In this document: piece after piece, positions 1 to 58,657 of the stretch
Layout: every line of letters starts with the position of its first letter
Numbering within the stretch: the first letter of the stretch is position 1
Assembly (NCBI GenBank): GCA_045646525.1
Contig: JAZRKX010000038.1
Location: 8,885-72,884 of the forward strand
Direction of reading: 5' to 3'
From: Clostridia bacterium
GTDB taxonomy: Bacteria; Bacillota; Clostridia; UMGS1810
DNA: 64,000 bases
Notes under the pieces: generated by a model
Told to the model about the DNA's origin: nothing
Database searches by the model: none
The model's input: only the letters and a program-made list of their open reading frames with translations
Translations under genes and position numbers: made by a program

Positions 1-434
1 GAGTTTCGCAGAAGGTTATTGACGAGTTTATATTATCTAAGGCAGACTTTATTTTAAAAGCCTTAGACAAGTATGCGAATAGAACGGAAAAGCCTAGTGT
101 GCAATATTTTGCCGAGGATGAAATTCGTGGCTTTATACTTGAACTGTGTGAAAAGATACACCCATACTTTGAAAAGTTTGGTGTGCAATATCCTACAATA
201 AAGTTCAGACGGATGGTATCTCAATGGGGTAATTGCCATTCACAAAAGGGAGTTTTGACTTTTAATACGAATTTGATGTATGTGCCGATTGAGTGTATAG
301 AATATGTGGTAGCTCATGAATTTACACATTTTCTGCAACCCAATCACTCAAGCAAGTTCTACGATGAATTAGCTAAAATAATGCCCGATTGGAAAACTCG
401 CAGGCAAAAGCTAAAATCTATTTCGATAAGATAG
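1..434 (+). CDS. YgjP-like M48/DUF45 zinc metallopeptidase, 5' end outside the window
   Basis: The reading frame is open from the window edge (VSQKVIDEFILSKADFILKALDKY...). It carries HEFTH (HExxH) followed by KFY..L, typical of the YgjP/DUF45 family. The listed start at 99 is only the first in-window start codon. Confidence 0.7.
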   Translation, partial: VSQKVIDEFILSKADFILKALDKYANRTEKPSVQYFAEDEIRGFILELCEKIHPYFEKFGVQYPTIKFRRMVSQWGNCHSQKGVLTFNTNLMYVPIECIEYVVAHEFTHFLQPNHSSKFYDELAKIMPDWKTRRQKLKSISIR

Positions 435-461
435 AAAAAGCGGTCATAAAGGAGAGTAACT

Positions 462-815
462 ATGATTAAATATATTTGTTATCCTAAATGTACAACCTGT
501 CAGAAAGCTAAAAAGTGGCTTGATGACAACAAAATAGAATGCGAGCTTCGTGATATTAAAAAGGATAATCCGAGTTATGAAGAATTAACCACTTGGCATA
601 AAATGAGCGAACTTCCGCTTAAGAAGTTCTTTAACACATCAGGACTTTTGTATAAGTCAATGGAACTGAAGGACAAGCTTCCTGCAATGTCAGACGAAGA
701 ACAATTAAGACTCCTTTCCACAGACGGAATGCTCGTAAAACGTCCGCTTGTAATAGGCGAAGACTTTGTTTTAGTTGGATTCAAGGAAAGTGAATGGAGC
801 GAAGTGTTACGATAA
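462..815 (+). CDS. ArsC/Spx/MgsR-family (arsenate reductase-like, thioredoxin-fold) protein
   Basis: 117 aa with an N-terminal CTTC redox motif (YPKCTTCQKAKKWL). The C-terminal LVKRPLVI..DFVLVGF is typical of the ArsC/YffB/Spx family. An RBS (AAGGAG) lies upstream. Confidence 0.75.
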   Translation: MIKYICYPKCTTCQKAKKWLDDNKIECELRDIKKDNPSYEELTTWHKMSELPLKKFFNTSGLLYKSMELKDKLPAMSDEEQLRLLSTDGMLVKRPLVIGEDFVLVGFKESEWSEVLR

Positions 816-857
816 AAAATTTAGGAACGAAAGCAATATAAAGAGGTGAATATTGTC

Positions 858-1538
858 ATGTCAGAAAATAAAATCCCGTTTGTTGGAAAAGTAGAAAAAA
901 TCACATTAGTTTCTATGCCTTGTTTCTACATCTGTCCACCTAAGGTTGGAGAGGATGATGAACAAAAGCTCACCATAAATAAAAACGGAAAAGTTACATT
1001 TACCTCTAAATTTTATCAGGTTTTGGGCATTTGTCCGATGAGCTATGGACGATGGGGAAAGACAACATTAGATAAGGACACGACATTTGAATTGCTTGAA
1101 GCTATAGTGAGACCTTTTAGAGAACCATATATTGAAACGTTTTGCACAGATGTTGGGAGTTGGTATTTGGTAGCCTTTAATACTGAAGGACAGAAATTTG
1201 AATTTGATGGACGTTTAATGTGTGATTCGTTTGAAGGTGCAGAAGAATTATCTTATCATATCCGTCAAACACTGATGATGCCAGATTTGTTTGCATTTGA
1301 TGGTGGGTATGGCATAAATTCAACAGACTATATTTACTTGAGTGTTGAATTTTCACATGGTGGAAAAACCTATTATTATAGGACAGACGATGATAGCGTA
1401 TCAGAGGGTGATGTTGTAATCGTGCCTGTTGGTGACGGAACCGAAAAGAAAGCACGAGTGGTTGATGTTGAATGTTTTAAAGAGGATAATGTTCCTATGC
1501 CGCTTGAAGAAGTGAAGTATATTCTTCGAAAGCTATAG
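858..1538 (+). CDS. hypothetical protein
   Basis: Long ORF (track 846..1538). The ATG at 858 follows AGAGG. No family recognised. Confidence 0.5.
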   Translation: MSENKIPFVGKVEKITLVSMPCFYICPPKVGEDDEQKLTINKNGKVTFTSKFYQVLGICPMSYGRWGKTTLDKDTTFELLEAIVRPFREPYIETFCTDVGSWYLVAFNTEGQKFEFDGRLMCDSFEGAEELSYHIRQTLMMPDLFAFDGGYGINSTDYIYLSVEFSHGGKTYYYRTDDDSVSEGDVVIVPVGDGTEKKARVVDVECFKEDNVPMPLEEVKYILRKL

Positions 1539-1557
1539 GGTTGAACAGAGGTACATA

Positions 1558-1955
1558 ATGGTTAAAAAGATTATAAAAGACATTTTTATATTCAGAAAAG
1601 CTGAGCCTGCAACAAAAGAAGACTTGCAGGTCGCAATAGATTTGGCAGACACCTTGCAGGCAAATGCAGATATTTGCGTTGGCATGGCGGCTAATATGAT
1701 TGGCGTTAACAAAAGGATTATCGCATTTTTTGTTGGTCCGATGGTTATGACAATGATAAACCCTATTATTGTTAAAAAGTCGAAGGAAACCTACGAGGTG
1801 GGTCATTATCTGGAACTCGTAATACAGTCAGGCATCAGGAAATTGAGGTTGAATATCTTGATATGAATTTCAAGAAGCAGCGGCAAGCTTACAGTGGCTT
1901 CCCTGCGCAGATTATTCAACACGAAATCGACCACTGCGATGGGGTTGTTATATAG
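1558..1955 (+). pseudogene. def: peptide deformylase paralogue, apparently disrupted (frameshift and missing Cys ligand)
   Basis: The N-terminal part (1558..1866) has GMAANMIGV, the motif 1 variant of short Firmicute def paralogues. The C-terminal part, with QHEIDHCDG (the HExxH metal site), is only in the -1 frame (open 1776..1955, stop TAG 1953-1955). No TGC or TGT codon occurs in any frame where EGCLS should lie. Confidence 0.6.
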
Positions 1956-2003
1956 ACAAGATACTGAAAAGAAAAATGATAGAATTCATTATAGGAGGAT
2001 AAA

Positions 2004-2492
2004 ATGATTGAAGCTATAATAGGTGTTTTTGGAACCATTTTAGGTACGGTCTTGGGGTGGTGCTTAGGTAATATTAAAAGTAATCGCTTGATTTTTAATA
2101 TAAAAGAAATACATTTGATGGATAAAGGAGATTATTATAAGGCATATTTTCATTTAAATATGTTTAATAAATCTGACAAGCCTAAAGCTTTAAGGAATCT
2201 TAAAATATGTGGTTATAAAAATAATGTGTGTGTCGTTCAATCGGAGGTTGAAAGTTCACCCGAAAATGGGTTTGCTAATAATGCCGAGAGAGAGGAATAT
2301 GAGGCATACTTAAGAGAGATTTCTTTATTAACTATCAATGCATACGAAAGCAAGGAAGTATCGTGTAAAATAGAATTTATAGATTTTGAAGAAGATGCTG
2401 AGTTTTTTCTGGAATATAATGATGATAACTTTAAACTACGACAAGTTCCTATAAATATTGTGATAAAAAAGAAAAAGAATCGTGGAGAATAA
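2004..2492 (+). CDS. hypothetical membrane-anchored protein
   Basis: 162-aa ORF with RBS AGGAGG and a single N-terminal hydrophobic helix (IIGVFGTILGTVLGWCLG). No family recognised. Confidence 0.5.
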   Translation: MIEAIIGVFGTILGTVLGWCLGNIKSNRLIFNIKEIHLMDKGDYYKAYFHLNMFNKSDKPKALRNLKICGYKNNVCVVQSEVESSPENGFANNAEREEYEAYLREISLLTINAYESKEVSCKIEFIDFEEDAEFFLEYNDDNFKLRQVPINIVIKKKKNRGE

Positions 2493-2713
2493 TAGTTTAT
2501 ATTATGACAGTTACAAAATTTTAGTTTATTAATCAACTAATCACGTCGAAAGGCTTGATTATATAAAAATTATTTTTAAGGAGTATTGCTGTTTGAAGAA
2601 AAACAACACCTTGGATATTGTAGCATAGACGGAGGCTGTGAAAAATATCTGCACAAGTCTCCCAAGATTGCAGTCAACAATTATCAGAATGAAAATAAAT
2701 GGAGAGGAAAACT

Positions 2714-2944
2714 ATGAGAAAGCTGTTTGAATATGCTAACATCTATGCGAGCCAAAGCACGTTTAAGGATTTTGCTCTTGTTAAGTTCTGCTTGTGTGCA
2801 ATCGGCGTATTTATAGGTGTTCTTCTGCCGGAATCCGTTCAAGCTTATGCTTTAATCGTCGCCGGTGCAGTTTTTCTTATTACATACATTCTGTTGATGC
2901 TTAAATTTATTAAGTTGATAATCAACGAAAGTAAGAAGAAATAG
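2714..2944 (+). CDS. small two-helix membrane protein
   Basis: ORF 2699..2944. The ATG at 2714 lies after GGAGAGG. Two hydrophobic segments. Confidence 0.45.
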   Translation: MRKLFEYANIYASQSTFKDFALVKFCLCAIGVFIGVLLPESVQAYALIVAGAVFLITYILLMLKFIKLIINESKKK

Positions 2945-2962
2945 AAGTTGGAGTGAAAAGTT

Positions 2963-3535
2963 ATGAGAAAGAATTTAGGTGCGAAGGCAATTTTATATCC
3001 AATGCCGGTTCTTATCATAGGAACATATGATAAGAACCGAAAACCTAATGCAATGAATGCTGCTTGGGGTGGTATAAGCGAAGAAACACAGATTTCTATT
3101 TGTGTTGATGACGGACACAAGACTGCAAAGAATGTGGTTAAAACAGGTGCATTTACCGTTAGTATTGCAGATGCAGAAAATGTTATTGCGTGCGACTATG
3201 TTGGTATTGTTTCTGGTAATAAAGTACCCGATAAAATCGAAAAAGCAGGTTGGCACGTTACAAAGAGTGAATTTGTGAATGCTCCGCTTTTTGATGAGCT
3301 GCCTATGGCGCTTGAATGCAAACTCATCAGCTACGACGCAGAATCTTGCAGACTTGTTGGTGAAATTTTAAATGTCTCTGCTGACGAAAGAATACTTGAC
3401 GAAAACGGAAAAATTGACTTGAATAAATTTAGTCCTATCACATATGACCCAGTACATCATATCTATCGTAAGATTGGTGATGTGATTGGTAAAGCTTTTA
3501 GTGATGGGGTGAAAACAAATAAATTACACCTATAA
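2963..3535 (+). CDS. flavin reductase family protein (FMN-binding split barrel)
   Basis: 190 aa. The N-terminus LYPMPVLIIGTYD...PNAMNAAWGG is typical of flavoredoxin/flavin reductase-like domain proteins. Confidence 0.75.
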   Translation: MRKNLGAKAILYPMPVLIIGTYDKNRKPNAMNAAWGGISEETQISICVDDGHKTAKNVVKTGAFTVSIADAENVIACDYVGIVSGNKVPDKIEKAGWHVTKSEFVNAPLFDELPMALECKLISYDAESCRLVGEILNVSADERILDENGKIDLNKFSPITYDPVHHIYRKIGDVIGKAFSDGVKTNKLHL

Positions 3536-3596
3536 TAACTAGAGGTGTATATATTTCCTGCGAAATACAACAAATACTATTTTAGGAGAAAATGCT

Positions 3597-4370
3597 ATGG
3601 AATTTAAAAACCCAACTATTGAATTACCACAAAGTGAAACGATAAAGAAGATTACCAAAAAGAAAGAAGGTATAGGAGAATATAACAAATTAGAATCCAC
3701 GTATTTTGTTTTTCTGGATGTATTAGGATTTAAACAAACTTACGAAGATATTTCAAAAGAAATAAAAGCAGTATTTGAATATTTTAATTCTTTAATTGCA
3801 CAGCTTGGATTTTTGGAGAAAACTCCCGAAAAATGTTATGCTGGGCAAACCTCTGATAGCTTATATTTTTACACGACGGAGTTGAATTATTTAGTTTGTT
3901 TTATTAATGTGTTTTTGCATTTTGGTTTATATGCTATGAGCAAAAATGTGTTTTTTAGGGGTGGTATTTCTAAGGGAACGCTTTACGTTAACAAACCATA
4001 CCAATTCTACGGGAACTGCGTAATAAACTCATTCCTATTAGAAGAAGATATAGCTAAAATGCCAAGAATAGCAATTGATAAAAAAACAATAAAGGATTTG
4101 AAAGGAAATACCCAAAATTGGAATATTGAAGAAGATCAAGACAGGACTTATTTAAATTTCTTTTCACAAAGTGTGTTAAACGATGTTGAAGATTATTTGG
4201 ATATGCCTAGTACTGAAAATAAAAAAATAAATGTGGATGTTATCAAGAAAATAAGGAGCAATATAGTAACTAATATGGATAACTTGGAATTTAACGAAAA
4301 GACATATAAAAAATACTGCTATTTAAAAAAATCCTGCGAAAAATTTATTGAACAAATCAAAAACAACTAG
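3597..4370 (+). CDS. minimal palm-domain nucleotide cyclase/polymerase-like protein (class III cyclase / GGDEF / Cas10-mCpol-like)
   Basis: 257 aa. Three motifs occur in the canonical order: YFVFLDVLGFK (Asp41 on strand 1), GQTSDSLYFY (Asp87) and FFRGGISKG (Arg121-x-G-I-x-x-G). No TM segment, sensor or effector domain recognised. The assignment rests on motif resemblance only. Confidence 0.4.
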   Translation: MEFKNPTIELPQSETIKKITKKKEGIGEYNKLESTYFVFLDVLGFKQTYEDISKEIKAVFEYFNSLIAQLGFLEKTPEKCYAGQTSDSLYFYTTELNYLVCFINVFLHFGLYAMSKNVFFRGGISKGTLYVNKPYQFYGNCVINSFLLEEDIAKMPRIAIDKKTIKDLKGNTQNWNIEEDQDRTYLNFFSQSVLNDVEDYLDMPSTENKKINVDVIKKIRSNIVTNMDNLEFNEKTYKKYCYLKKSCEKFIEQIKNN

Positions 4371-4411
4371 AATAAAAAAGAAAAATATACATATGATAGG
4401 AGATAAATGTT

Positions 4412-5878
4412 ATGAATGATATATATGTTGGAGCGAGTATATTGAATATAATTACTGAGTCACTATACGAAAGACCGATTGTTGTTTTTAGAGAATATGT
4501 GCAGAATTCTGTGGATTCTATGGCGATGATTGAAAATGAGGAAAATAAACGGGATTTATGCAATTACATTTGGAATAAAGGTGAAAATTTGTATTTTTTG
4601 GACAATGGCAAAGGAATATTGAAGGAAGAATTTTTGCCAAAAATGAAAAGCATTGCATTCTCTGGCAAGGAAAAAACTACAAATTTGGGTTATAAGGGTA
4701 TCGGTCGTCTGTCTGGTGTTTCCTATTGCCAAAAATTGAGGTTTATTAACATTTTAGATTTTAAAAACGATGTTTTTCAAGAGTATTCAATAGATTGTAA
4801 TGAATATGCCAAACTTCAGAAAAACGAAAATTATAATGAGTTAACTTTTGAGGAATTGATGGATTGTATTGGAACATTAAATGAAAATGTTTCGTCTCAA
4901 GAAATACATGAAACAATTAAAACTCACTCAGATATTTTCGAGAAAAGAAATGAAGGATTTTTGGTTATATTAGAAGAAATATCTCAAGTCTTAAAAAATA
5001 TTATAAAAGATAAAAGGTTTGGTAATGAACTAGGGTGGCTACTGCCAGTTCCGTTTGATTCTGAAATGATTTCTGGGGAAGACAATAATGATGTTCTATT
5101 TAAATCATTAAGCGAAGAGAAAATCCTTAACAATATAATAGCAGCAAAATCGTACAATATATTTTACAATAATACTCAAATTTTTAGACCCATAAAGAAA
5201 CGCATGCTAAGAAAGTATACTTGTAAAAGTAATTTAGGTAAATATGCAATATGTGTACACACATTTTCGAATGAAAGGATACAGATCGATAGTTCCAATG
5301 AATTTTCAGGAATAAGGGTATATATAGACAATATGCTCTTATGTGATGAAGCTGAATTAATAACAATGTTAGAACAGTATAATTATACTACTTCCTCTAG
5401 AAATGAGTTGATACAAGCTTCTAGGGGTATAGGTGCGATGATTTATATAGTTGACAAAGTTAATATTTCTGCAAATGCGAGACGTACTTTTATAGAAACT
5501 ACCGATCAAGATTCAATGGAATTTTTGGGGTTGATTGGTTCTTTTATAAGCAATGTAAATGCTGCTAGATATGCTTTGTCAAAGTATGCATCTGCCTTAA
5601 AAAACAGTGAAAGTATAGAATCAGACATACAAATTAAAAAACAAAAGGCATTGATAAACCTTCAAAAACTTGCAAGTGATGAAATACAGGTGGAAGTAAA
5701 ATTAGATGATAAACAAACTGAGTTTGAAAAATTGAGCGCCATAGAGCAAAAGAAAATAGTAAAGACCAAAATAAGTAGGGGTATAAACGAATCAATTAAA
5801 GACTACTTAAATAATGCTACAAGTCTTAATATCGAAACATGCACAGAAGATTTTAAAATATGGTTCTTATCAAATTAA
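4412..5878 (+). CDS. GHKL-superfamily ATPase (Hsp90/MORC/HATPase_c_3-like) with long C-terminal extension
   Basis: 488 aa with Bergerat-fold motifs: REYVQNSVDS (E-x3-N-x2-D), YFLDNGKGI (DxGxG) and GYKGIGRLSG (GxxGxG). The C-terminal tail is K/E-rich and looks like a coiled coil. Confidence 0.65.
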   Translation: MNDIYVGASILNIITESLYERPIVVFREYVQNSVDSMAMIENEENKRDLCNYIWNKGENLYFLDNGKGILKEEFLPKMKSIAFSGKEKTTNLGYKGIGRLSGVSYCQKLRFINILDFKNDVFQEYSIDCNEYAKLQKNENYNELTFEELMDCIGTLNENVSSQEIHETIKTHSDIFEKRNEGFLVILEEISQVLKNIIKDKRFGNELGWLLPVPFDSEMISGEDNNDVLFKSLSEEKILNNIIAAKSYNIFYNNTQIFRPIKKRMLRKYTCKSNLGKYAICVHTFSNERIQIDSSNEFSGIRVYIDNMLLCDEAELITMLEQYNYTTSSRNELIQASRGIGAMIYIVDKVNISANARRTFIETTDQDSMEFLGLIGSFISNVNAARYALSKYASALKNSESIESDIQIKKQKALINLQKLASDEIQVEVKLDDKQTEFEKLSAIEQKKIVKTKISRGINESIKDYLNNATSLNIETCTEDFKIWFLSN

Positions 5879-5934
5879 CTAAACCCTCTTTACAAATCGT
5901 CTCGTTCATGATAAACTTATATGGGTGATTAATT

Positions 5935-7605
5935 ATGGAAAAGATTTTACTGGTGGAGCCTAACTATAAAAATAAGTACCCTCCAATCGGATTAATGAAA
6001 ATTTCACATTATTATAAAGCAAAAGGTGATTTTGTTCAATTTCATAAAGGCTTGTTGCCAACTTCGGAGGTATCCTTTTATGATAAAGTATTAATAACAA
6101 CATTGTTCACCTTTGATTTCGATATGTGTGTAAAAACAATTAAATATTATATTGCAATAGTTGGCGCCGAAAGAGTGTTTGTAGGTGGTATTGCTGCAAC
6201 GATAATGCCAGAAAAATTTATTAAAGAAATTCCTAATATAAATTTACTGAAAGGGCAGTTGACCTCATCTAGTGTTTTGGGATATGATGACGACATAAAT
6301 ATTGATATATTGCCTCTTGATTATGATATGCTATTAGACATTGAATATGATTATCCAGCTGCTGATAGTTATTTCATTTACACATCTAGAGGTTGCCCTA
6401 GAAAATGTACATTTTGCGCTGTTCAAAAACTCGAGCCTGAATTTTATGATTGCCAAAATGTAGAGGATCAAGTTTCCCGAGTAGATAACAAATATGGTAT
6501 TAAGAGAAATCTTTTAATAATGGATAATAACATTCTATATTCATCAAAATATGAAGAGACAATAAATGTTTTGGAAAAGATAGGCTTTGGAATATCCAAT
6601 AATACCTGTAAGAAGAATAATAATATTAGATTCTATTTGGAAAGTATAAGCAAGCGTATAGAAGTGGGTAAAAATTATGATTGTTTGCTGAATAGAATAA
6701 AAAAAGAATTTTTGGGGTTGAAGTTTAGAAGAATTAGTAATAATGATCAGGAAAAACTGAAAGTTCTTATAGAAAGTATTAACGAGGGAGACAATCGCTT
6801 TGTAGAGGAGTTGTTAAAAGAAAAAAAATATCTGGTCGATTTTTTTGATAGATATCATTATCACAAGATTAAACGGTTTGTCGATTTCAATCAAGGATTA
6901 GATGCTCGCTTGTTTTCAGAAGAAAAGGCAAAGATTATGGCTAAGATAGCAGTTAGGCCTTGTAGAATTGCATTTGATCATATTGAAACACAGGATACAT
7001 ATTTGCAAGCTTTAGAGAATGCGGCAAAGTATGGAATTAAGGAGTTTTCTAATTACTTGCTATATAATTTTAAGGACAAGCCAGAAGATTTATGGACAAG
7101 GCTTGCTATAAATATCGATTTTTGTGAAAAACATAATGACAAAAATGTATCTCTGTTCTCATTCCCTATGAAATACGCAGCAATAGATAAAACAGACAGA
7201 AACTATGTTGGAGAAAATTGGTGCAGAAAATTTTTGAGATCAATTAATGTAATTTTAAATGTTACATCCGGTGTTGTTACAAGAGAAAAGGATTTTTTTG
7301 AAAGAGCTTACGGTAAAAACCCAGATGAATTTAGAACTATATTAACAATGCCAGATGACTTTATTAGATACAGGGATTTTTTCGAAAAAAATGGATTGAC
7401 TAATAAATGGAAAGAAGAATATAACAAATTATCAAACGATAAAAAAGAACAACTTCTATATGTGCTGTCACAATATAAAACGGATATTGAAGCATTTGAT
7501 AAATCTGACGATACTTCTTTAAAATATATAATGGAATTTTACTCTATAAAGAAAAAAGAGTACGAGAAAAATGAACTGTTTTATAAAAGAAAGTATTCAT
7601 TATAA
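5935..7605 (+). CDS. radical SAM enzyme with N-terminal B12-binding-like domain
   Basis: 556 aa. The N-terminus KILLVEPNYKNKYPPIGLMKIS resembles the Rossmann-like start of class B radical SAM enzymes. SRGCPRKCTFCAV gives CxxxCxxC (Cys154/158/161). There is no Cys-rich SPASM-type tail. Confidence 0.7.
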   Translation: MEKILLVEPNYKNKYPPIGLMKISHYYKAKGDFVQFHKGLLPTSEVSFYDKVLITTLFTFDFDMCVKTIKYYIAIVGAERVFVGGIAATIMPEKFIKEIPNINLLKGQLTSSSVLGYDDDINIDILPLDYDMLLDIEYDYPAADSYFIYTSRGCPRKCTFCAVQKLEPEFYDCQNVEDQVSRVDNKYGIKRNLLIMDNNILYSSKYEETINVLEKIGFGISNNTCKKNNNIRFYLESISKRIEVGKNYDCLLNRIKKEFLGLKFRRISNNDQEKLKVLIESINEGDNRFVEELLKEKKYLVDFFDRYHYHKIKRFVDFNQGLDARLFSEEKAKIMAKIAVRPCRIAFDHIETQDTYLQALENAAKYGIKEFSNYLLYNFKDKPEDLWTRLAINIDFCEKHNDKNVSLFSFPMKYAAIDKTDRNYVGENWCRKFLRSINVILNVTSGVVTREKDFFERAYGKNPDEFRTILTMPDDFIRYRDFFEKNGLTNKWKEEYNKLSNDKKEQLLYVLSQYKTDIEAFDKSDDTSLKYIMEFYSIKKKEYEKNELFYKRKYSL

Positions 7606-7669
7606 ATTCCTTCGTTGACTTCCGTCACTTTCTGTGGTACTGTTTGTGTTACCAAAGGAGGTGACACGG

Positions 7670-7912
7670 ATGGTAAAGTACAAATTAGAAGACATCATGT
7701 GTGGCGAGAAGTACAACATTGAGAGCGATGTATTTATGGAAGTATTCAGATTGGTAGAGCAAAAAGCAGATGCCAAAATGATACGAGAACAACTTAATAC
7801 GATTTATGTCAAGCACGCACTGCTGACAGCAAAGAAAATGATTGAAGAGGGCGACTCGATTTCGGATATACCGGAATTAGAGCCGCCCTTTCTATGTGAG
7901 GAGGGAAAATAA
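7670..7912 (+). CDS. hypothetical small protein (80 aa)
   Basis: ORF 7634..7912. The ATG at 7670 is preceded by AAAGGAGG. Its stop overlaps the start of the next ORF. Confidence 0.45.
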   Translation: MVKYKLEDIMCGEKYNIESDVFMEVFRLVEQKADAKMIREQLNTIYVKHALLTAKKMIEEGDSISDIPELEPPFLCEEGK

Positions 7913-8184
7913 TGCAAATACTTGAAGAATTCTGGTATGGGAACATACATCCAAATGAAAGGCATGGTGAGAGCAACATAGAAATGATTAAAATCAGCGA
8001 CCTGATAAAAAGGCACGAAGGAACATTGATAAAGTCACTAGACGAGAAAAACAAAGAGATATTCGAAAAATACAGAGACTGTTATGATGAACTGACGCAA
8101 CTTAACGAATGCGAAGTCTTCAAGATAGGCTTTAAATTAGGTGTCAGGATGCTACTCGAATGCTACGATGACCTGGCAAAATAA
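7912..8184 (+). CDS. hypothetical small protein (90 aa)
   Basis: The ATG overlaps the upstream stop (TAATG). N-terminus ILEEFWYGNIHPNE. Followed by a hairpin terminator. No family confidently recognised. Confidence 0.45.
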   Translation: MQILEEFWYGNIHPNERHGESNIEMIKISDLIKRHEGTLIKSLDEKNKEIFEKYRDCYDELTQLNECEVFKIGFKLGVRMLLECYDDLAK

Positions 8185-8189
8185 AAATT

Positions 8190-8218
8190 GGTGCAACCGC
8201 CATACGAGCAGTTGCACC
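8190..8218. terminator. bidirectional hairpin between convergent genes
   Basis: GGTGCAAC-N13-GTTGCACC, flanked by A-rich (left) and T-containing (right) runs. It sits between the 3' ends of 7912..8184 (+) and 8225..8425 (-). Confidence 0.6.
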
Positions 8219-8224
8219 AAATCT

Positions 8225-8425
8225 TTATTTACGAGTCGGTTTAACATTGACATCGGGATTGATGTCGCCATCAATAGAGCCGTGTTCTTCTTCAAACTTT
8301 TTGATGTTCTCACGAATCAGAACTAACACATGACTGTTTACGCTGCGACCTTCGTAGTCGGCAACATAACCGATTTTATTGAGCATTTCTTCCTCAATTC
8401 TTATGGACACACTTTTAATAGCCAT
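8225..8425 (-). CDS. ribbon-helix-helix (Arc/CopG-like) DNA-binding protein
   Basis: 66 aa. MAIKSVSIRIEEEMLNKIGYVADYEGRSVNSHVLVLIRENI matches the RHH pattern of a beta-strand followed by two helices. Confidence 0.65.
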   Translation of the reverse strand: MAIKSVSIRIEEEMLNKIGYVADYEGRSVNSHVLVLIRENIKKFEEEHGSIDGDINPDVNVKPTRK

Positions 8426-8475
8426 AAAATCACCTCATAATAAATATATTATGTATTTATTTTATAGCCTTTATG

Positions 8476-8510
8476 TGCTATAATGTTAAGAATAGATATA
8501 TAGTATATCT
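8476..8510 (+). promoter_or_regulatory. extended -10 promoter (TGcTATAAT) with adjacent perfect palindrome AGATATA-TAG-TATATCT
   Basis: TGCTATAAT lies at about 8476-8484. The 17-bp palindrome at about 8494-8510 sits where the transcript for 8536..9027 would start, in the divergent intergenic region next to the RHH gene. Confidence 0.45.
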
Positions 8511-8535
8511 AAAATAATTTTATGAGGTAATTATT

Positions 8536-9027
8536 ATGAGTAAAGAATTAAGGTTACACAGATGTTGTTTTACAGGGCATCGACCTGACAAAATGGAGCT
8601 TGGAGAAAGAGAAATTAAGCCATTACTGGAAAAAGCAATAGATGATGCTATTGCAGATGGTTATGTAACCTTTATAACAGGTATGGCAATGGGAACTGAT
8701 ATATGGGCAGCTGAGATTGCTTTGGAGAGAAAGAAAACGAACAAGGACTTACATCTGATATGTGCGTTACCTCACCCGAATTTTGAGAGCAAGCGGAGTA
8801 TGACAGAAAAGATGAGGTTTAACAAGATAATCAAAAATGCTGACCTTGTAAAAGAAATCAATGACCATTATTTTACTGGATGCTATCAGGTGAGAAATGA
8901 ATGGATGGTTGACAGGTCAAATCTTGTAATTGCTGTGTTCAATGGTCAAAGGAGTGGGACGAAAAATACGGTTGATTATGCAAAAAGAAAAGGCATTCAT
9001 GTTATGAATGTCCTCGATAGCATTTAA
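8536..9027 (+). CDS. SLOG-fold DUF1273 (YpsA-like) protein
   Basis: 163 aa. CCFTGHRPDKM...YVTFITGMAMGTDIWAAEIAL is characteristic of the DUF1273/YpsA family. Confidence 0.75.
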   Translation: MSKELRLHRCCFTGHRPDKMELGEREIKPLLEKAIDDAIADGYVTFITGMAMGTDIWAAEIALERKKTNKDLHLICALPHPNFESKRSMTEKMRFNKIIKNADLVKEINDHYFTGCYQVRNEWMVDRSNLVIAVFNGQRSGTKNTVDYAKRKGIHVMNVLDSI

Positions 9028-9222
9028 AATCGATTTTGAGGCCGAGTTGCAACGGCTGTTAAAGGGGTGTAAGACCAAACTCTCTCGGGAAGGGTAGTTA
9101 CACCACCCGAGGCATTAAATCGCAAATAAGACGGCCGTTAAAGGGCGTGTGAGCAAAATAAAAGCGGATGCAACCTTAAGCTCTTTATTGAGCAGGTTAC
9201 ACCCGTTAAATTATGATTGTTT

Positions 9223-9408
9223 TTACGGATAATATGGATTGGGTTTGAAGAGCAGTATTATTAAATCTACTATGACGCCAACACCGAATAATCCGCCGGT
9301 ACATAGATATACGATACCTAATAAAATTCTTTCTTCATAGAATTTATGAATTCCCAAGTAACCTAAGAATAGGCATAGGAAGAATGATATCCATTTTGAT
9401 TTTGGCAT
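9223..9408 (-). CDS. TM2 domain-containing small membrane protein
   Basis: 61 aa. FFLCLFLGYLGIHKFY...G is the TM2 pattern. Confidence 0.7.
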   Translation of the reverse strand: MPKSKWISFFLCLFLGYLGIHKFYEERILLGIVYLCTGGLFGVGVIVDLIILLFKPNPYYP

Positions 9409-9421
9409 ATAACCACCTCAG

Positions 9422-9934
9422 TTATTTATTTTTTAATGAATCTATAAATGCCGATAGTTTGTTTACGATTTTATCTTTGCTTAAAAATTCTGATGCAATT
9501 TCGGAAAGGTCATTAATTACTTTGATTATATTTTCTTCTCCAAGCCAATGTTCGCAAATTATTTCATTATCTACACTATTTATCAAGTCTGAAAGTGTCT
9601 TAATTATTAACAAAGCATCGTCTGTAAAACCACCGGGAATTAAATCGGGGATAATATCTATTGGTGATATACAATAAACGATAGCACATCCTAAATACAA
9701 TTTATTCTTTGTTGGAACTCGATTATCTCCAAACAACTTGCAAGTTAAATGAAAGAAATCAGGAAACATCATTATGTAGTTTATATGTTTAGCTTTTGGG
9801 TGCTCGTTAATGTAATCATCTACTCTTTTTCTTAGCTTTTCATAAAAATCTTTTTGTTTTCTTTCGTCAGAGGCTTTTTTTATAATACTTTCTCTGTCTT
9901 TATCTGAAAACTCATTAAAATTAAAGTTTTCCAT
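9422..9934 (-). CDS. YkvA/DUF1232 family protein
   Basis: AIVYCISPIDIIPDLIPGGFTDDALL is the DUF1232 signature. Confidence 0.7.
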   Translation of the reverse strand: MENFNFNEFSDKDRESIIKKASDERKQKDFYEKLRKRVDDYINEHPKAKHINYIMMFPDFFHLTCKLFGDNRVPTKNKLYLGCAIVYCISPIDIIPDLIPGGFTDDALLIIKTLSDLINSVDNEIICEHWLGEENIIKVINDLSEIASEFLSKDKIVNKLSAFIDSLKNK

Positions 9935-9956
9935 TTAATTCCACTCCTTTTAGTGA

Positions 9957-10589
9957 TTAATCTTTTTGTTTATTTTCTGTGTTTTCATCGATATTTGTTT
10001 CGGTTGAACTATCTTCATAACGCCATTTGATTTGGTAATCTATGTCGGATATTTCGCCCATCTTCTTGATATAATTTTCTATTAGCTCTTGTGCTCGATC
10101 TTGTGCATTGAGTAATAACGATTTATTATTTTTTACACTTTCGGACATTTCTATTTGAGCAGAGTTTATTGCTGAAGTTTGGTCATCGGCAGTAATTTTG
10201 TTTTTTACTAGGCCATCTGCTGATTTGATATATGATTCCTTGTTCAAATCATTTTCGTATATATCTATATCTAACAATTCTGCATTAGGTAAAGAAACTG
10301 TCACATTATTTCCGTTGATTTCCATATTCACTTTTGACATATCTATACCTATTTTTGCTATTCCTGTATATTCAATCCAAAATTCTCTTTCTTTTTTTAA
10401 CCAAGAATCTGCAGGTTTCTTTGATTTGGCAACATTATGGTAGTAACACTCTAATGTTGCTAAATTACAGATAGAACGAATTTGGGTAATATCCGGTTCT
10501 TTCACGATTGTATTGTTGTTTTGTTTGCATCCTGCTAAAAGAAAGCAACAGACTAGCGTGGTTAAAATAAGTATTCTTAATTTCCTCAT
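9957..10589 (-). CDS. DUF4230 lipoprotein
   Basis: Track ORF 9957..10610. The likely start is the ATG (MRKLRIL...) 10 nt after GGAGGG. Lipobox LLAGC. CNLATLECYYHNV...WIEYTGIAKIGIDMSKV resembles DUF4230. Confidence 0.6.
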   Translation of the reverse strand: MRKLRILILTTLVCCFLLAGCKQNNNTIVKEPDITQIRSICNLATLECYYHNVAKSKKPADSWLKKEREFWIEYTGIAKIGIDMSKVNMEINGNNVTVSLPNAELLDIDIYENDLNKESYIKSADGLVKNKITADDQTSAINSAQIEMSESVKNNKSLLLNAQDRAQELIENYIKKMGEISDIDYQIKWRYEDSSTETNIDENTENKQKD

Positions 10590-10606
10590 GATACCATTTC
10601 CCTCCA

Positions 10607-11281
10607 TCAATTAATCTCTACGGTATAAGTGCTGTCAATGGCATCAATCCAAGGTTTGAATAGCGCTTCTACCGAAGATATGGCATTTTCCCTTGCAGTG
10701 TCATGCAGTACATTTTCCTTTTCGATTCTTTCTTTTAAATCGTCTTTGCAAAGTTTATATGCTTCTTGCGAAATGTCTTCTGTTTCATATCTATTTTTTG
10801 TGAATATGTATTCCATAGTACCCATATCTACTTTAGTGCTATGAATTTCTACGGCAGGAATAGTTATTATAACTTTCTTTTCATCTTTGAGGACATCTAT
10901 TCCGATTTCATTGAAGTCAATTCCGGCAGTTACAGTGCCCTCGTACGCAACATAATACATTGCATCATTATCTTCGTCATATTTTGTTGCAGTCGCATTA
11001 TAAGTGTAATCAACTGTGGAAAGTTCGTTTATTTCGATAACTTTTTGTAAAGATGACTTTGAAATTGTTGTTAGTTGACCGCCTTTGTTTTGAGTGATTG
11101 CCAATAAAATTGCAACAACAATTATTAATACTAATGATAAAATGACTATTATTTTTGTTTGTAGTTGCAATTTTGGGAATTTAATTTTAAATTTCTTCTT
11201 AGTTTTTTCAGCAGTAATATTTTCTGCATTAGGAATTGCCTGCTCTTGTTCTGAAATGATTATTTTTTCTTTGGTTTCCAT
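10607..11281 (-). CDS. DUF4230 membrane-anchored protein (paralogue of the downstream gene)
   Basis: Track ORF 10607..11338. The likely start, METKEK, lies after GGAGGG. One TM helix. LSTVDYTYNATA...YEGTVTAGIDFNEIGIDV resembles DUF4230. Confidence 0.6.
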   Translation of the reverse strand: METKEKIIISEQEQAIPNAENITAEKTKKKFKIKFPKLQLQTKIIVILSLVLIIVVAILLAITQNKGGQLTTISKSSLQKVIEINELSTVDYTYNATATKYDEDNDAMYYVAYEGTVTAGIDFNEIGIDVLKDEKKVIITIPAVEIHSTKVDMGTMEYIFTKNRYETEDISQEAYKLCKDDLKERIEKENVLHDTARENAISSVEALFKPWIDAIDSTYTVEIN

Positions 11282-11415
11282 AAAACACCCTCCACATATA
11301 TTTTCAAAACAGTGTTTGTAAATTTCGCGAATATCCATTTATTTACTTTATTATATCACTAGAAGCGTAAAAGGACAATAATTTTGTCGAAATTTGTTGT
11401 TTGTGCATAGAAAAA

Positions 11416-11441
11416 GCGTGATGACATTAAAATCATCACGC
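11416..11441. terminator. hairpin terminator downstream of tRNA-Ser
   Basis: GCGTGATGA-N8-TCATCACGC flanked by AAAAA and TTTTT. Confidence 0.65.
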
Positions 11442-11445
11442 TTTT

Positions 11446-11538
11446 TGGCGGAGATGCAGAGATTTGAACTCTGGCGCCGGTTTGAGCCGACCTACTGCAT
11501 TTCGAGTGCAGACCCTTCAACCACTTGGGTACATCTCC
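11446..11538 (-). tRNA. tRNA-Ser (anticodon CGA), CCA encoded
   Basis: The reverse complement folds by eye. Acceptor stem GGAGATG/CATCTCC, anticodon stem CTGCA/TGCAG with loop CTCGAAA, a long variable arm, T-arm CAGAG-TTCAAAT-CTCTG, and 3' GCCA. Confidence 0.9.
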
Positions 11539-11639
11539 AGATATGTTTGAACTCCGATTTGACGGAGAAAAAACTGAGCAAATTATAAATTTTTGTTAGA
11601 AAAATGTTAGAAATGGCTAGAAAAACCGCTAGATAAGGG

Positions 11640-11761
11640 TGTAAAAACAAGGTTTGAACCTCGCTTAAACCCGCGTGGTTAAGCCATTTGCAGGGGTACA
11701 GTTACAGTGTAACCGAGGGGATTTCGAGTCGTTCTCGTTATGACCACTTCGATACTTCTCC
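11640..11761 (-). other. tRNA-Ser-related fragment / structured RNA-like segment
   Basis: The minus strand begins GGAGAAGTATCGAAGTGGTCATAACGAG.ACGACTCGAAAT. This parallels the acceptor 5' half, D-arm (with compensatory TCG/CGA) and anticodon loop of the neighbouring tRNA-Ser. It lacks a pairing anticodon stem and a matching acceptor 3' strand. Confidence 0.3.
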
Positions 11762-11854
11762 AAATATAAGAGAGCGCAACCCAAAAGTTAAGCTCAACAA
11801 ATGTTATTATACACCAAATAAGATACTTTGTAAATACCAAATTTAAAAAACTTT

Positions 11855-12514
11855 CTAAGATATATCAAACAGATTCCATGGAAATTGCATGGCATCGGGC
11901 AGGGAGGAGTATTGCCTTTTTGTGTTGTCAAAAGGAGAGTCAAAAGAAATCTTGTGCGACCAAAGTGCCACAGGGCAATTATCTTTGCCGCTTCCGTAGC
12001 GTCTGTCGCCTACAAGTGGCATCTTTCTGTGGGAAAACTGGACTCGTATTTGATGTGTTCTTCCTGTGTGCAGGAGGATTTTTACAAGGCTCATTTGCTT
12101 GCACTCATAACACACGGTATCTATAAGTTCATATTCCAAAGAGGCTTCCTTTACACCTTTGCGGAGCCTTTTTACAACGTAGCTTTTGTTTTTGGAAGAA
12201 TCTTTAAAAAGCAAATCTTCTAAAACACCTTTTTCAGCTTCGGGTTTTCCGTGGATTATTGCAAGATATGTTTTTTGCATGTTGCCCTCGGACACAATTT
12301 TAGAAAGAGAGGCGGCACTCTGTTTTGTAAGAGCATATACCATGGTACCGCCGACCGCGTTATCAAGCCTATGAATAGGGTAGATGCTGTCCAAAGAAAC
12401 ATTTATCTCTTGTGATATAATTGTGGGCATATCGCACTTACCGTTGGTTTTTTGAGAAGACACACCAACGGGCTTTTTGCATATTATGTAATTTTGTTCG
12501 TTGTGTATTATCAT
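11855..12514 (-). CDS. RluA-family pseudouridine synthase (no S4 domain)
   Basis: HRLDNAVGGTMVYA (catalytic Asp motif) and GRTHQIRVQF. Confidence 0.8.
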   Translation of the reverse strand: MIIHNEQNYIICKKPVGVSSQKTNGKCDMPTIISQEINVSLDSIYPIHRLDNAVGGTMVYALTKQSAASLSKIVSEGNMQKTYLAIIHGKPEAEKGVLEDLLFKDSSKNKSYVVKRLRKGVKEASLEYELIDTVCYECKQMSLVKILLHTGRTHQIRVQFSHRKMPLVGDRRYGSGKDNCPVALWSHKISFDSPFDNTKRQYSSLPDAMQFPWNLFDIS

Positions 12515-55947: not shown

Positions 55948-56325
55948 GTAGCTGGGTTTGTCAGATTTCATCAATGGCTTGTGGAACAATCGACGATTGT
56001 CTATCGACAAAATAAGCGGCAACTGACTCGTATAGTCTGTTTAACTGAGATTGTGCCCAATGGAAGTAGAATCTGAAAAAGATTTTAATTTTTATTTTAG
56101 TTTTGCTTTTTGCTTTTGCGTTTATAAGGATTACAACTTCGACATATGAAAACATAAACCGGAGAAACAATAGAAATAAAGACTACCAAAGATTATAGTC
56201 AAATAGTTGTAGAAGAAAGCGATATTGCTGATTATAGAATATTTATAGATATTTCCGAAAAGTATAGTGCATTAGAACAGATTGAGGAGCCTTTTAGAAA
56301 AACAATCTCTTTGTATATGCAGGCA

Positions 56326-56354
56326 AATAATTTTTTGTTCCTGACTTGACACGA
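56326..56354 (+). repeat. cassette junction repeat, copy A
   Basis: AATAATTTTTTGTTCCTGACTTGACACGA is 28/29 identical to 57081..57109 and shares the core TCCTGACTTGACACGAG with the copies near 58005 and 59146. Confidence 0.8.
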
Positions 56355-56394
56355 ACTTTGTAAAGGATGTCGAATGATGTCGAAAATAAATATG

Positions 56395-56439
56395 TTGACA
56401 ATATCCTACAATTTGTATATAATATAAATTGTAGGATAT
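56395..56439 (+). promoter_or_regulatory. promoter of phd-doc with overlapping palindromic operator
   Basis: TTGACA-17 nt-TATAAT. The 14-bp arms ATATCCTACAATTT / AAATTGTAGGATAT bracket the -10 element. Confidence 0.65.
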
Positions 56440-56468
56440 ATTTATTGTATAAATAATAGGAGGTAATT

Positions 56469-56711
56469 ATGAATATAAATACTGAAACAATTACAACAAT
56501 GACAGAAGCAAATCAAAATTTTTCAAAAGTTGCAAAGGTGGCAGAAAATAATGGTCAGGCGGTTATATTTAAAAATAACAAACCTAAATTTTTACTGATA
56601 GATGTTGATTCAAATTCATATTTTGATATTACTGATGATGAAAAAATTGATGTTGCTGCAAAAAGAATTATGAATCGTTTTAAACCTGCGTTTGAGGAGC
56701 TGGCAAAATGA
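56469..56711 (+). CDS. phd: Phd/YefM-family type II antitoxin
   Basis: 80 aa. TITTMTEANQNFSKVAKVAENNGQAVIFKNNKPKFLLIDVD. Overlaps the downstream toxin gene by 4 nt. Confidence 0.8.
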   Translation: MNINTETITTMTEANQNFSKVAKVAENNGQAVIFKNNKPKFLLIDVDSNSYFDITDDEKIDVAAKRIMNRFKPAFEELAK

Positions 56712-57085
56712 TAAAATTAAGTAAAGAAAAGGTTTTACTCCTGCATCAACTGATTGCCGAAGAAACAGGCGGCAGTTTCGGTGTTCGAGATGTTGGTCTT
56801 TTGGAAAGTGCACTTAATAATGCATACGCCACTTTTGGTGGAGAAGAACTTTATAAAACAAAAGAAGAGAAAGCGGCAAGTCTTGGATTTTCGCTTATAT
56901 CAAATCACGCTTTTGTGGATGGTAATAAGAGAATAGGTGTATATGTTATGCTCACATTTCTGGAAGCAGAAGGTATAAAGATGAACTGTACTAATTCAGA
57001 TGTTGTAGATATGGGTCTGTCTGTTGCATCGGGCGAGATGAAATATGATGAAATTTTAAATTGGATAAACAAGTTCAAAAAATAA
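56708..57085 (+). CDS. doc: Doc (death-on-curing) Fic-fold toxin
   Basis: HAFVDGNKRIG is the Doc-type Fic motif. 125 aa. Confidence 0.85.
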   Translation: MIKLSKEKVLLLHQLIAEETGGSFGVRDVGLLESALNNAYATFGGEELYKTKEEKAASLGFSLISNHAFVDGNKRIGVYVMLTFLEAEGIKMNCTNSDVVDMGLSVASGEMKYDEILNWINKFKK

Positions 57086-57115
57086 TTTTTTATTCCTGAC
57101 TTGACACGAGTAAAA
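57081..57115 (+). repeat. cassette junction repeat, copy B (includes right-type inverted repeat GACTTGACACGAGTAAAA)
   Basis: AATAATTTTTTATTCCTGACTTGACACGAGTAAAA. It begins in the doc stop codon. Positions 57098-57115 are the exact reverse complement of 57831-57848. Confidence 0.8.
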
Positions 57116-57148
57116 TTTTTGTCGAATGGTGTAGAAAGAGGTGGGAAA

Positions 57149-57427
57149 ATGAAAAAGAAAGTCTTAAATGTAACACCATATATTGCAGGATTACTATATT
57201 TGGTTTATTGTATGGCTAATATAAATTATTGGGTTAAAAGTCATATGGGATTTGGATTTTATGTCTTGATTCCTTGGCTTATTGCTGCTGTACTTTCTAT
57301 ATCATTTATAGTGGCAAAGGTTTTGGCTAAAAAGAAATTTGCTTTTTATTTACCACTTTTCTTTCTTATTATTGGATTGATAATCAATATAGTTGGCTCA
57401 AATATTCCTTGTTGTGTTGGCGGGTGA
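57149..57427 (+). CDS. small three-helix membrane protein (cassette gene)
   Basis: Track ORF 57101..57427. The ATG at 57149 (MKKKVLNV) follows AGAGGTGGG. An in-frame TTG at 57119 would add the conserved MSNGVERGGK leader. Confidence 0.5.
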   Translation: MKKKVLNVTPYIAGLLYLVYCMANINYWVKSHMGFGFYVLIPWLIAAVLSISFIVAKVLAKKKFAFYLPLFFLIIGLIINIVGSNIPCCVGG

Positions 57428-57475
57428 TGCTTTAGAGATGCGCACCTATAAAGAATGTTGAAAGGAGTAGGGAAT

Positions 57476-57829: not shown

Positions 57830-57830
57830 A

Positions 57831-58026: not shown

Positions 58027-58069
58027 ATTATGTCGAATGCTGAATAACTATGTTGAAAGGTGTGAAAAT

Positions 58070-58609: not shown

Positions 58610-58657
58610 TAATATCTTTTATAAATGATGTCTATTGATGTGAAAGGAAGTGCAAAA

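Follow-up and report, generated by a model that had tools for sequence, protein, structure and literature searches.

A conserved cassette of a cyclase-fold protein, an Hsp90/MORC-like ATPase and a radical SAM enzyme as a candidate bacterial conflict system

What would a small protein with the metal-binding motifs of a nucleotidyl cyclase do beside a chaperone-like ATPase and a radical S-adenosylmethionine (SAM) enzyme? This question is raised by three genes, here termed g1, g2 and g3, within a 64,000-nucleotide (nt) stretch of a Clostridia bacterium genome (contig JAZRKX010000038.1, positions 8,885 to 72,884), which we refer to as the window. A first-pass annotation of this DNA had proposed the trio as a novel conflict system. 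Here, we show that the three genes almost certainly constitute a real conserved cassette, and we consider it probable, if well short of certain, that this cassette is a conflict or defence system.

Results

A three-gene cassette that stays together across three phyla

The open reading frame (ORF) listing of the window gives the three genes as follows:

3597–4370, + strand: g1, 257 amino acids (aa), putative cyclase-homology protein
4412–5878, + strand: g2, 488 aa, predicted GHKL ATPase
5935–7605, + strand: g3, 556 aa, predicted radical SAM enzyme

These coordinates agree with the earlier description of three co-directional genes separated by 41 nt (4371–4411) and 56 nt (5879–5934). They also lie where it had located the most AT-rich stretch, as the kilobase 4001–5000 has the lowest GC content of the window (0.281), followed by 0.305 for 5001–7000, compared with 0.40–0.45 in the window core. 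The low-GC block as a whole spans 1–12000 (0.28–0.37 versus 0.40–0.45) and ends near a tRNA-Ser gene (11446–11538).

A scan of 185,579 species, each represented by a single genome, with patterns derived from the g1 alignment yielded 23 g1 loci, a rare and patchy distribution over three phyla. At all 23 loci a g2 orthologue is located directly 3' of g1 (expectation value, E, 1e-119 to 1e-182) and a radical SAM gene is adjacent, and metagenomic contigs of sufficient length carry the same trio, so that this check of the gene neighbourhood confirmed the co-occurrence of the three families throughout. The hosts comprise many Clostridia families, Treponema, Izemoplasmatales, Defluviitaleaceae and the cultured Alkaliphilus pronyensis, and Blautia producta has a g2 relative. 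The cassette is abundant among Clostridia of human and animal guts, a setting in which the interplay of phages and hosts shapes the microbiome. Three gene orders were observed, in which primes mark the Type B and C counterparts:

Type A: g1, g2, g3, in the order of the window
Type B: six genes, B387, B567, GHKL', radical SAM', g1, g2
Type C: radical SAM', g1, g2, at locus L049

Across the loci, the gaps between the genes are operonic, ranging from −14 to 41 nt between g1 and g2, from 24 to 110 nt between g2 and g3 and from −11 to 39 nt between radical SAM' and g1. Among the three proteins, the radical SAM enzyme evolves most slowly (62% mean identity), followed by g2 (52%) and the fastest-evolving g1 (43%). 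Within Type A their pairwise distances correlate (r 0.72–0.84, uncorrected for host phylogeny), in line with a unit under selection. At the nucleotide level the similarity of the window to other loci is confined to 3658–7489, the limits of the cassette, which indicates that the cassette moves as a discrete module. In addition, we noted a locus (L021) where g1 is split into two ORFs of 125 and 145 aa (9851–10663), likely a pseudogene, and where the B387–B567–GHKL'–radical SAM' module is inverted relative to g1–g2.

For each of the three proteins we aligned 30–40 relatives with 36–80% identity. All motifs and residue numbers quoted in the first-pass annotation proved correct and each of these motifs is invariant in its family alignment, pointing to conservation under selection rather than chance.

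g1 is a divergent stand-alone cyclase-homology domain

The g1 protein comprises a palm core (approximately residues 30–190), a disordered amino-terminal tail and a carboxy-terminal helical hairpin (213–256). The window protein gave no significant match to Pfam, NCBIfam or PADLOC models, with no match to PF00211 (adenylate/guanylate cyclase catalytic domain) at E ≤ 1, and neither its single sequence nor its profile matched any PDB entry, so that only the comparison of folds succeeded. Within the family, PF00211 was matched by six of the 40 members (best E 2.4e-6). The AlphaFold2 model, based on the 40-sequence alignment, reached a mean predicted local distance difference test score (pLDDT) of 88.8 and a predicted template modelling score of 0.84. 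In a Foldseek comparison of this model to the PDB, the best 50 matches were all class III adenylyl, guanylyl or uridylyl cyclases (E 5e-6 to 4e-4; probability 1.0; target-normalised template modelling (TM) score up to 0.66), and the only near-significant matches in the viral library BFVD were giant-virus guanylate cyclase domains. Together, the Pfam matches of the relatives, the confident model and the cyclase folds among the best 50 matches support the palm fold that had been claimed for g1. Of the relationships claimed along with it, the kinship to class III cyclases holds. We rejected those to GGDEF, Cas10 and mCpol proteins, as PF18182 matched none of the 40 relatives and the best 50 folds were cyclases.

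The invariant columns of the g1 family are D41, G83-Q-T-S-D87-S88, R121-G-G-I124 and G127. To place them in an active-site register, we aligned the family profile by hhalign with three annotated plasmid cyclases, which had been fetched with a mycobacterial fragment that served solely as a probe. The resulting match is weak (E 0.32) and was used for the residue register only, where it agrees with the motifs and is backed by the Pfam and Foldseek results. In this register, D41 aligns with the first metal-binding Asp (the Asp of FADIVGFT), D87 with the second (the Asp of GDS), R121 with the phosphate-binding Arg of R-x-G and G139-D/N140 with the G-D preceding the VNxASR helix. The position of the transition-state Asn is occupied by the invariant I143, that of the transition-state Arg by the near-invariant L147 and that of the base-specifying (purine) Lys by the invariant G83. 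The roles of these positions are assigned as in Rv1625c-type enzymes. Sequence and model together identify g1 as a real but divergent class III cyclase-homology domain, predicted to have kept the site for a nucleoside triphosphate (NTP) and Mg2+ and to have lost the cyclisation residues. Since the transition-state Asn and Arg are missing, canonical synthesis of a cyclic nucleoside monophosphate by g1 appears doubtful. The protein may accordingly be regarded as a natural experiment in palm-domain repurposing, in which the metal/triphosphate site was kept and the cyclisation residues were dropped.

The amino-terminal tail (residues 1–28; window 3597–3680) follows the pattern M-x-Y/F-x-N5-P6, continued by Y29, with N5, P6 and Y29 invariant. 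Although conserved, it is predicted to be disordered (pLDDT 53–63), and the wider superfamily lacks it. The tail may dock g1 onto g2 or g3, or could even serve as a substrate.

This superfamily emerged from an exhaustive search with the g1 profile, resulting in 49 cluster representatives at E < 1e-30, which form the cassette-linked clade, and 3806 at E < 1e-3. Its members (for example proteins P0411–P0506 and the loci L045 4624–5439, L046 5989–6840 and L047 5953–6768) are cyclase-fold proteins of about 240 aa that share the motifs D, S-D-S, R-G-G-I and G...E and remained without a match in Pfam or PADLOC. Many of their genes stand alone as monocistronic units on plasmids of the Bacillus cereus group. 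An Agrobacterium member adjoins dsr1, an anti-phage gene, and fusions to TPR repeats or to an amino-terminal domain of about 300 aa occur in some members. If our reading of the cassette is true, it would give this large unannotated superfamily its first functional context.

g2 has the pattern of an active, dimerising Hsp90/MORC-like ATPase

The full set of Bergerat-fold motifs claimed for g2 is borne out by the match to HATPase_c_3 (41.3 bits, cut-off 25) and by the invariance of the motif residues, namely E28 (the catalytic Glu), N32, D64, G66, G68 and G93-Y-K-G-I-G-R-L-S-G102. Searching the PDB with the family profile retrieved the N-domains of GRP94, TRAP1, HtpG and Hsp90 (E 1e-5). The Foldseek alignments of the AlphaFold2 model (pLDDT 81.5) extend over 445–525 columns and involve Hsp90/TRAP1 in full length (E 6e-11) as well as MORC2 (5e-10). 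By sequence and by fold, g2 is nearer to Hsp90, GRP94 and TRAP1 than to MutL or GyrB. The Bergerat N-domain is followed by a middle/transducer domain with an invariant basic motif (N355-A-R-R-T-F360) and by a helical carboxy-terminal tail (long helices 366–487). The extension of roughly 350 aa reported earlier is hence present, but instead of a mere non-ATPase extension, the model and the Foldseek alignments assign it to an Hsp90/MORC-type middle/transducer domain and a helical tail. The motifs and the model are those expected of a GHKL ATPase that is active and dimerises.

g3 is a radical SAM enzyme with a possible B12-type N-domain

The radical SAM assignment of g3 is confirmed by a match to PF04055 above the cut-off (34.6 versus 29.5 bits) and by an invariant CxxxCxxC triad (C154/C158/C161) that is kept in all three radical SAM clades. 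No cysteine beyond this triad is conserved across the three clades, so that g3 should have no SPASM, twitch or MiaB-type auxiliary cluster, in agreement with the absence of a SPASM-like Cys tail noted before. Four extra invariant cysteines of the Type A g3 proteins were considered as ligands of an auxiliary Fe–S cluster and rejected, as they are absent from the other clades. The family is strongly conserved overall (66% mean column identity).

The B12-type, Rossmann-like N-terminus proposed for g3 fared less uniformly. The motif E8-P-x-Y-x-N-K-Y-P-P-x-G19 is present in all clades. The B12-binding model PF02310 scored 16.4 bits for g3 and 17 bits for the Type B paralogue, below its cut-off of 32.1, and a precomputed PF02310 match exists for three of 120 g3 homologues. 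The best NCBIfam neighbours are all B12-type radical SAM families, with scores 10- to 20-fold under their cut-offs. On this sequence evidence a B12-type N-domain is weakly supported.

A wider radical SAM–GHKL family uses other partners in place of g1

Searching with g3 by tblastn identified full-length relatives with about 36% identity on alphaproteobacterial plasmids. On Novosphingobium pNL1 (L039, 3075–11119) the relative belongs to a five-gene block encoding a PIN-like protein (651 aa), a GHKL protein, a DGQHR/DpdB-like protein, the radical SAM enzyme and a second GHKL protein, and Bradyrhizobium p187_1 (L040, 3206–11188) carries the same block. The DGQHR/DpdB-like protein matches TIGR03187 (7e-45) and DpdB (4e-11), and the radical SAM gene is translationally coupled to it. 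By gene content, the block resembles a sister system whose partners handle DNA. The pNL1 block is preceded by a reverse-transcriptase gene and followed by a second, larger DGQHR protein.

Likewise, a human-faeces scaffold (L041, 451–8314) carries the B387–B567–GHKL'–radical SAM' module with no g1–g2; the scaffold is GenBank MT836743, an unverified, unannotated record labelled 'Bacteriophage sp.'. B567, a HerA-type ATPase, matches PADLOC mad8 (9.6e-11) and HerA (5e-5). GHKL' and g2 are paralogues over their full length (hhalign probability 99.9, 354 columns), and for B387 we found no relation to g1, DGQHR, PIN-like or B567 proteins or to any Pfam, NCBIfam or PADLOC model. On the same scaffold the module is followed by a 505-aa protein which, by eye only, resembles the SLFN/AlbA_2 plus HATPase_c_4 proteins beside the cassette of locus L033. 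Because the radical SAM–GHKL pair also occurs without g1, the core conserved across phyla is, by sequence comparison, the radical SAM enzyme together with the Hsp90-like ATPase, and g1, DGQHR, PIN-like and HerA-like proteins would be alternative partners.

The cassette lies among defence and mobile-element genes

The individual loci place the cassette next to a type II restriction-modification (RM) system with NgoFVII (L035), to Shedu SduA, SLFN/AlbA_2 and a UvrD helicase together with RepA_N, NikA and ParB (L033), to WYL and endonuclease/phosphatase genes (L036), to a methyltransferase, a PLD-helicase restriction enzyme, HNH and a P4 cII-like protein (L001), and to Mob_Pre, TnpV and an IS21 element (L048). 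We further scanned the 148 proteins encoded within 4.5 kb of the cassette at 27 loci, recording raw frequencies. The commonest PADLOC families were PDC-S04, SoFic, type IV, I and IIG restriction enzymes, PbeA, mad2/3, SIR2, SduA, ZacB and type II methyltransferases, and the commonest Pfam families were Fic, HTH_3, ResIII, SLFN_AlbA_2, PLDc_2, SduA_C, DNA_methylase, RE_NgoFVII, TnpV, NikA and IS110. The flanks examined for signs of defence islands thus abound in RM, Shedu, Fic, SIR2 and mobile-element genes.

Transcription unit and neighbours in the window

Around the cassette, the window contains the following further features:

3509–3536, + strand: promoter-like site GTGAAA-16-TATAAT (10/12 match to the consensus), at the 3' end of the flavin-reductase gene and about 60 nt before g1
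7634–8184, + strand: two small ORFs of 92 aa (no known function) and 90 aa (DUF6809), possibly co-transcribed with the cassette
8188–8220, no strand assigned: 14-bp GC-rich hairpin, scoring as a terminator on the − strand, its + strand role being presumed

Promoter-like sites were no more frequent in the region than expected by chance (36, shuffles 30 ± 5.3), and the promoter and terminator scans overall did no better than on shuffled sequence. No + strand terminator was found in the scan between g3 and 8184. The hairpin, between the convergent DUF6809 and Arc-like genes, is likely the end of the transcription unit. We considered the two small ORFs as fourth and fifth components of the cassette and rejected them, as they recur only in the related locus L035; the DUF6809 gene is also present at a distance in L022. 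The flavin reductase gene directly upstream of g1 is not kept beside the cassette at the other loci compared.

The other window neighbours are an Arc-like repressor, a YpsA/SLOG protein and membrane proteins. The Arc-like gene (8225–8425, − strand; PF03869, 2.4e-6) is divergent from the adjoining YpsA/SLOG-family gene (8536–9027, + strand), which lies about 350 nt downstream of the hairpin and matches PF06908 (1.5e-19), a DprA-like model (1.6e-7) and, weakly, PADLOC ShosA (4.9e-6). SLOG proteins are associated with nucleotide-based conflict systems. Three co-directional membrane-type genes (9422–11338, − strand; DUF1232 and two DUF4230 paralogues) are located between the cassette region and the tRNA-Ser gene. 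Upstream, the window has a truncated peptide deformylase of 102 aa (1558–1866, + strand; profile positions 14–89 of 156). The equivalent place in L035 holds a 136-aa deformylase and a type II RM system (two Dcm-type methylases and NgoFVII) that is absent from the window, which suggests that the region is a shared variable hotspot with different cargo. A second low-GC island at 56000–60000 (0.30–0.34 versus about 0.42) contains a short Fic/DOC gene (56708–57085; 3e-17), a DKNYY-family gene (59205–59888) and four small ORFs with no family match.

Discussion

Proposed working of the cassette

The conserved engine of the cassette would be the radical SAM enzyme g3, always travelling with the dimerising g2. 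In the working we propose, g1 would bind NTP-Mg2+ and either regulate g2 in a nucleotide-gated manner or work for g2 as a non-canonical nucleotidyl-transferase. In a g1–g2 complex, ATP-driven N-terminal dimerisation (clamping) would recognise or hold the target, and clamping would license g3, whose SAM-derived 5'-deoxyadenosyl radical, possibly together with cobalamin, would alter nucleic acid or, less likely, a free nucleotide; in either case the replication of the invader would be blocked. We infer the complex formation, the substrate, the trigger and the protective outcome. That the trio is a discrete, horizontally transferred cassette acting as an undescribed conflict system, directed against phages or mobile elements and working in this way, we hold to be an evenly balanced proposition. 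The specific mechanism taken by itself is tentative, and we would sooner expect it to be revised than upheld. Our lean towards a nucleic-acid target comes from the alternative partners of the sister systems, all of which handle DNA (DpdB-like DGQHR, PIN-like nuclease, HerA-type translocase, MORC/Hsp90-type clamp).

Several observations weigh against this interpretation. Lacking residues that are essential in all characterised class III cyclases, g1 could be catalytically dead as judged from its sequence. The putative B12-type domain of g3 scores below threshold, no sequence relative of g3 could be detected among solved structures, as its profile gave no usable PDB match even at E 10, and any substrate named for it is a guess. 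A recognisable nuclease, pore or NADase effector is missing from the compact Type A cassette. The defence role is read from the neighbourhood, where the flank counts come without a matched genome-wide control, and the correlation among the pairwise distances of the three proteins (r 0.72–0.84 within Type A) is uncorrected for host phylogeny. Finally, no g1 relative was found among 50,697 phage records, 72,556 plasmids (PLSDB) or the IMG/VR contigs, so that we take the cassette to be chromosomal or integrative-element cargo.

A free-nucleotide product, as made by viperins or OxsB, ranks a close second behind a nucleic-acid target. Radical SAM enzymes acting on free nucleotides, such as the viperins and the B12-dependent OxsB, make antiviral analogues, and the cassette could likewise be a factory in which g1 makes an unusual nucleotide, g3 remodels it or a free NTP to a chain terminator or signal and g2 senses infection. 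The whole metal and triphosphate site of g1, with a fold matching cyclases including the Pycsar-type 8jsz, and the slow evolution of g3 (62% mean identity compared with 43% for g1), which suits a universal small-molecule substrate, speak for this account, and such a product would explain a compact cassette that needs no further effector. However, g1 has lost the transition-state Asn and Arg and the base-specifying Lys, PADLOC gave neither a pVip nor a PycC match, the cassette has no receptor or effector protein for a signal, and the sister systems exchange g1 for DGQHR, PIN- or HerA-like proteins rather than for nucleotide kinases or nucleotide-metabolism genes; we judge it unlikely, though a serious contender. 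We rate somewhat lower the chance that g3, together with the g2 clamp and g1, marks the DNA of the host, for instance by a C-methyl group, while separate variable genes (PIN-like, HerA/B387 or neighbouring nucleases) restrict unmarked DNA. Class B radical SAM enzymes are typically methyltransferases, the alphaproteobacterial enzyme is coupled to a DGQHR/DpdB-like gene beside a PIN-like and a second GHKL gene, Type B adds the HerA/mad8-like ATPase, and nuclease genes (Shedu, PLD-helicase, HNH) are frequent downstream of the cassette. But the neighbours of Types A and C vary and include no constant nuclease, which would leave a modification-only module without its restriction partner, and g3 has no evident DNA-binding domain nor any other sign of touching DNA.

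The similarity of g2 to Hsp90, GRP94 and TRAP1 rather than MutL or GyrB would also suit a clamp that holds a protein client for modification by g3, either post-translationally or as in ribosomally synthesised and post-translationally modified peptides (RiPPs). The client could be the disordered tail of g1, conserved in the cassette-linked clade (N5, P6 and Y29; pLDDT < 65), and some B12-type radical SAM enzymes do modify proteins, such as the MCR methylases among the weak NCBIfam matches of g3. The RiPP-type role, which the first-pass annotation had named together with secondary metabolism as the main alternative, finds no support, as g3 has no auxiliary or SPASM-like Cys motif and the small downstream ORFs are not conserved. 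More generally, the cassette comes without any conserved gene for a precursor peptide, a protease, a transporter or immunity, its flanks hold defence and mobile-element genes instead of biosynthetic ones, and MORC2 fits g2 almost as well as Hsp90, all of which makes protein modification improbable. We give least credence to an ordinary accessory metabolism (modification of a cofactor, lipid or tRNA) whose location in variable regions would be coincidental. Most radical SAM/B12 enzymes do serve metabolism, the nearest NCBIfam models of g3 are biosynthetic enzymes and a flavin reductase gene directly precedes g1 in the window; yet those NCBIfam scores are 10- to 20-fold under the cut-offs, the flavin reductase is not kept elsewhere, and a metabolic role fits poorly with a patchy spread over 23 species genomes in three phyla, with elements carrying Mob_Pre, TnpV, NikA and RepA_N, and with the PIN-like, DGQHR and HerA-like partners of the sister systems.

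Returning to the working proposed above, the cassette might represent a new class of immunity, in which a B12-type radical SAM enzyme is licensed by an Hsp90-like clamp and a degenerate cyclase-fold NTP sensor and directs radical chemistry at the nucleic acid of the invader or at a new antiviral nucleotide; it would then be one branch of a cross-phylum radical SAM–GHKL family with swappable DNA-handling partners (DGQHR, PIN-like, HerA-like). We put this forward with reserve, as a suggestion with rather less than an even chance. Such a cassette could reveal a new modification of DNA or nucleotides or a new antiviral nucleotide analogue, and the products of viperins and oxetanocin illustrate the pharmacological value of such molecules. 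The Hsp90/MORC and cyclase folds both have eukaryotic counterparts, which adds a possible evolutionary interest.

Comparison with known systems

The first-pass annotation had not recognised the trio as any named defence system, and our searches concur. PADLOC-DB v2.0.0 gave no match for g1 or g2 and one at noise level for g3 (PDC-M51A, E 0.0085), g1 belongs to no Pfam or NCBIfam family, the cassette has no NCBIfam model, and we found no description of it in openly searchable full texts. All public records of the three proteins either lack a name or give a generic one ('hypothetical', 'ATP-binding protein' and 'HtpG', the last a mis-annotation). Ophion, MADS, Dpd/Dnd, pVip and Pycsar were each tested as the identity of the cassette and rejected on the comparison of genes and profiles.

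The fold of g1 relates the cassette to Pycsar and other class III cyclases, with the Pycsar-type Anabaena uridylate cyclase 8jsz (259 aa; TM score 0.45/0.45) among the Foldseek matches. Like Pycsar cyclases, g1 keeps both metal-binding Asp residues and the phosphate-binding Arg and is a small stand-alone protein in a defence-type locus. In contrast, its transition-state Asn and Arg are replaced by Ile143 and Leu147 and its specificity Lys by Gly83, it has no PADLOC PycC match, and there is no gene for a TIR or transmembrane effector. Instead, g1 is accompanied at every locus by g2 and a radical SAM gene as obligate partners; to our knowledge, Pycsar never has a GHKL ATPase or a radical SAM partner. 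With Panoptes, the cassette shares a minimal, sensor-less palm-domain protein in a small defence operon. The mCpol proteins of Panoptes are defined by PF18182, a GGDD active site and an adjacent 2TM-beta or CARF-TM effector (PMC12657230). None of the 40 g1 relatives matched PF18182, g1 has TSDS in place of GGDD, the structure 9NWN is not among the best 50 fold matches of g1, and the cassette has no 2TM-beta or CARF-TM effector.

A radical SAM enzyme as the presumed chemical effector of an anti-phage locus is what the cassette has in common with pVip, Ophion and OxsB. OxsB is the B12-type radical SAM enzyme of oxetanocin synthesis, which remodels a nucleotide into an antiviral compound. Unlike viperins, g3 has a putative, weakly supported B12-type N-domain, and it gave no PADLOC pVip match. 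Ophion combines the radical SAM enzyme OpnA with PHP and PRTase proteins (bioRxiv 10.1101/2025.09.30.679545). The GHKL protein and the cyclase-homology domain of the cassette are unrelated to these two as well as to the HD-domain OxsA. SPASM/RiPP maturases differ by their auxiliary Cys motif, which g3 lacks, and no conserved precursor-peptide-like ORF lies beside the cassette. Regarding MADS, the methylation-associated defence system (bioRxiv 10.1101/2023.03.30.534895), the HerA-type ATPase of Type B matches PADLOC mad8 (9.6e-11); this is a partial match of one protein, and no gene of the window matches any mad model.

The alphaproteobacterial sister cassette, with its DGQHR/DpdB-like gene immediately before the radical SAM gene, provides a likeness to the DNA-modification systems Dpd (7-deazaguanine), Dnd and Ssp with their DGQHR proteins (DpdB/DndB). 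By analogy with DpdA/DpdB, this arrangement suggests an NTP-dependent helper combined with a DNA-modifying enzyme. The window cassette differs in having no DGQHR, TGT, PAPS-reductase-like or cysteine-desulfurase gene, and its chemistry would be that of a radical SAM enzyme. GHKL clamps, among them MutL, MORC, Hsp90 and topo VI-B, share with g2 the Bergerat motifs including the catalytic Glu, the transducer domain and the helical dimerisation tail. In contrast to the GHKL proteins of restriction-like systems, g2 has no fused nuclease, methylase or S5-MutL-type endonuclease module, and it is always paired with a radical SAM enzyme, a pairing for which we found no description in other GHKL systems.

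As these membership tests failed, PADLOC v2 and the literature hold no counterpart and the public copies are unnamed, we rate the architecture, by its gene content, as new with respect to the described systems compared. If the cassette is protective, it would bring new enzymology to bacterial immunity, a cobalamin-type radical SAM enzyme working with an Hsp90/MORC-like ATPase, and we know of no described system that couples the two.

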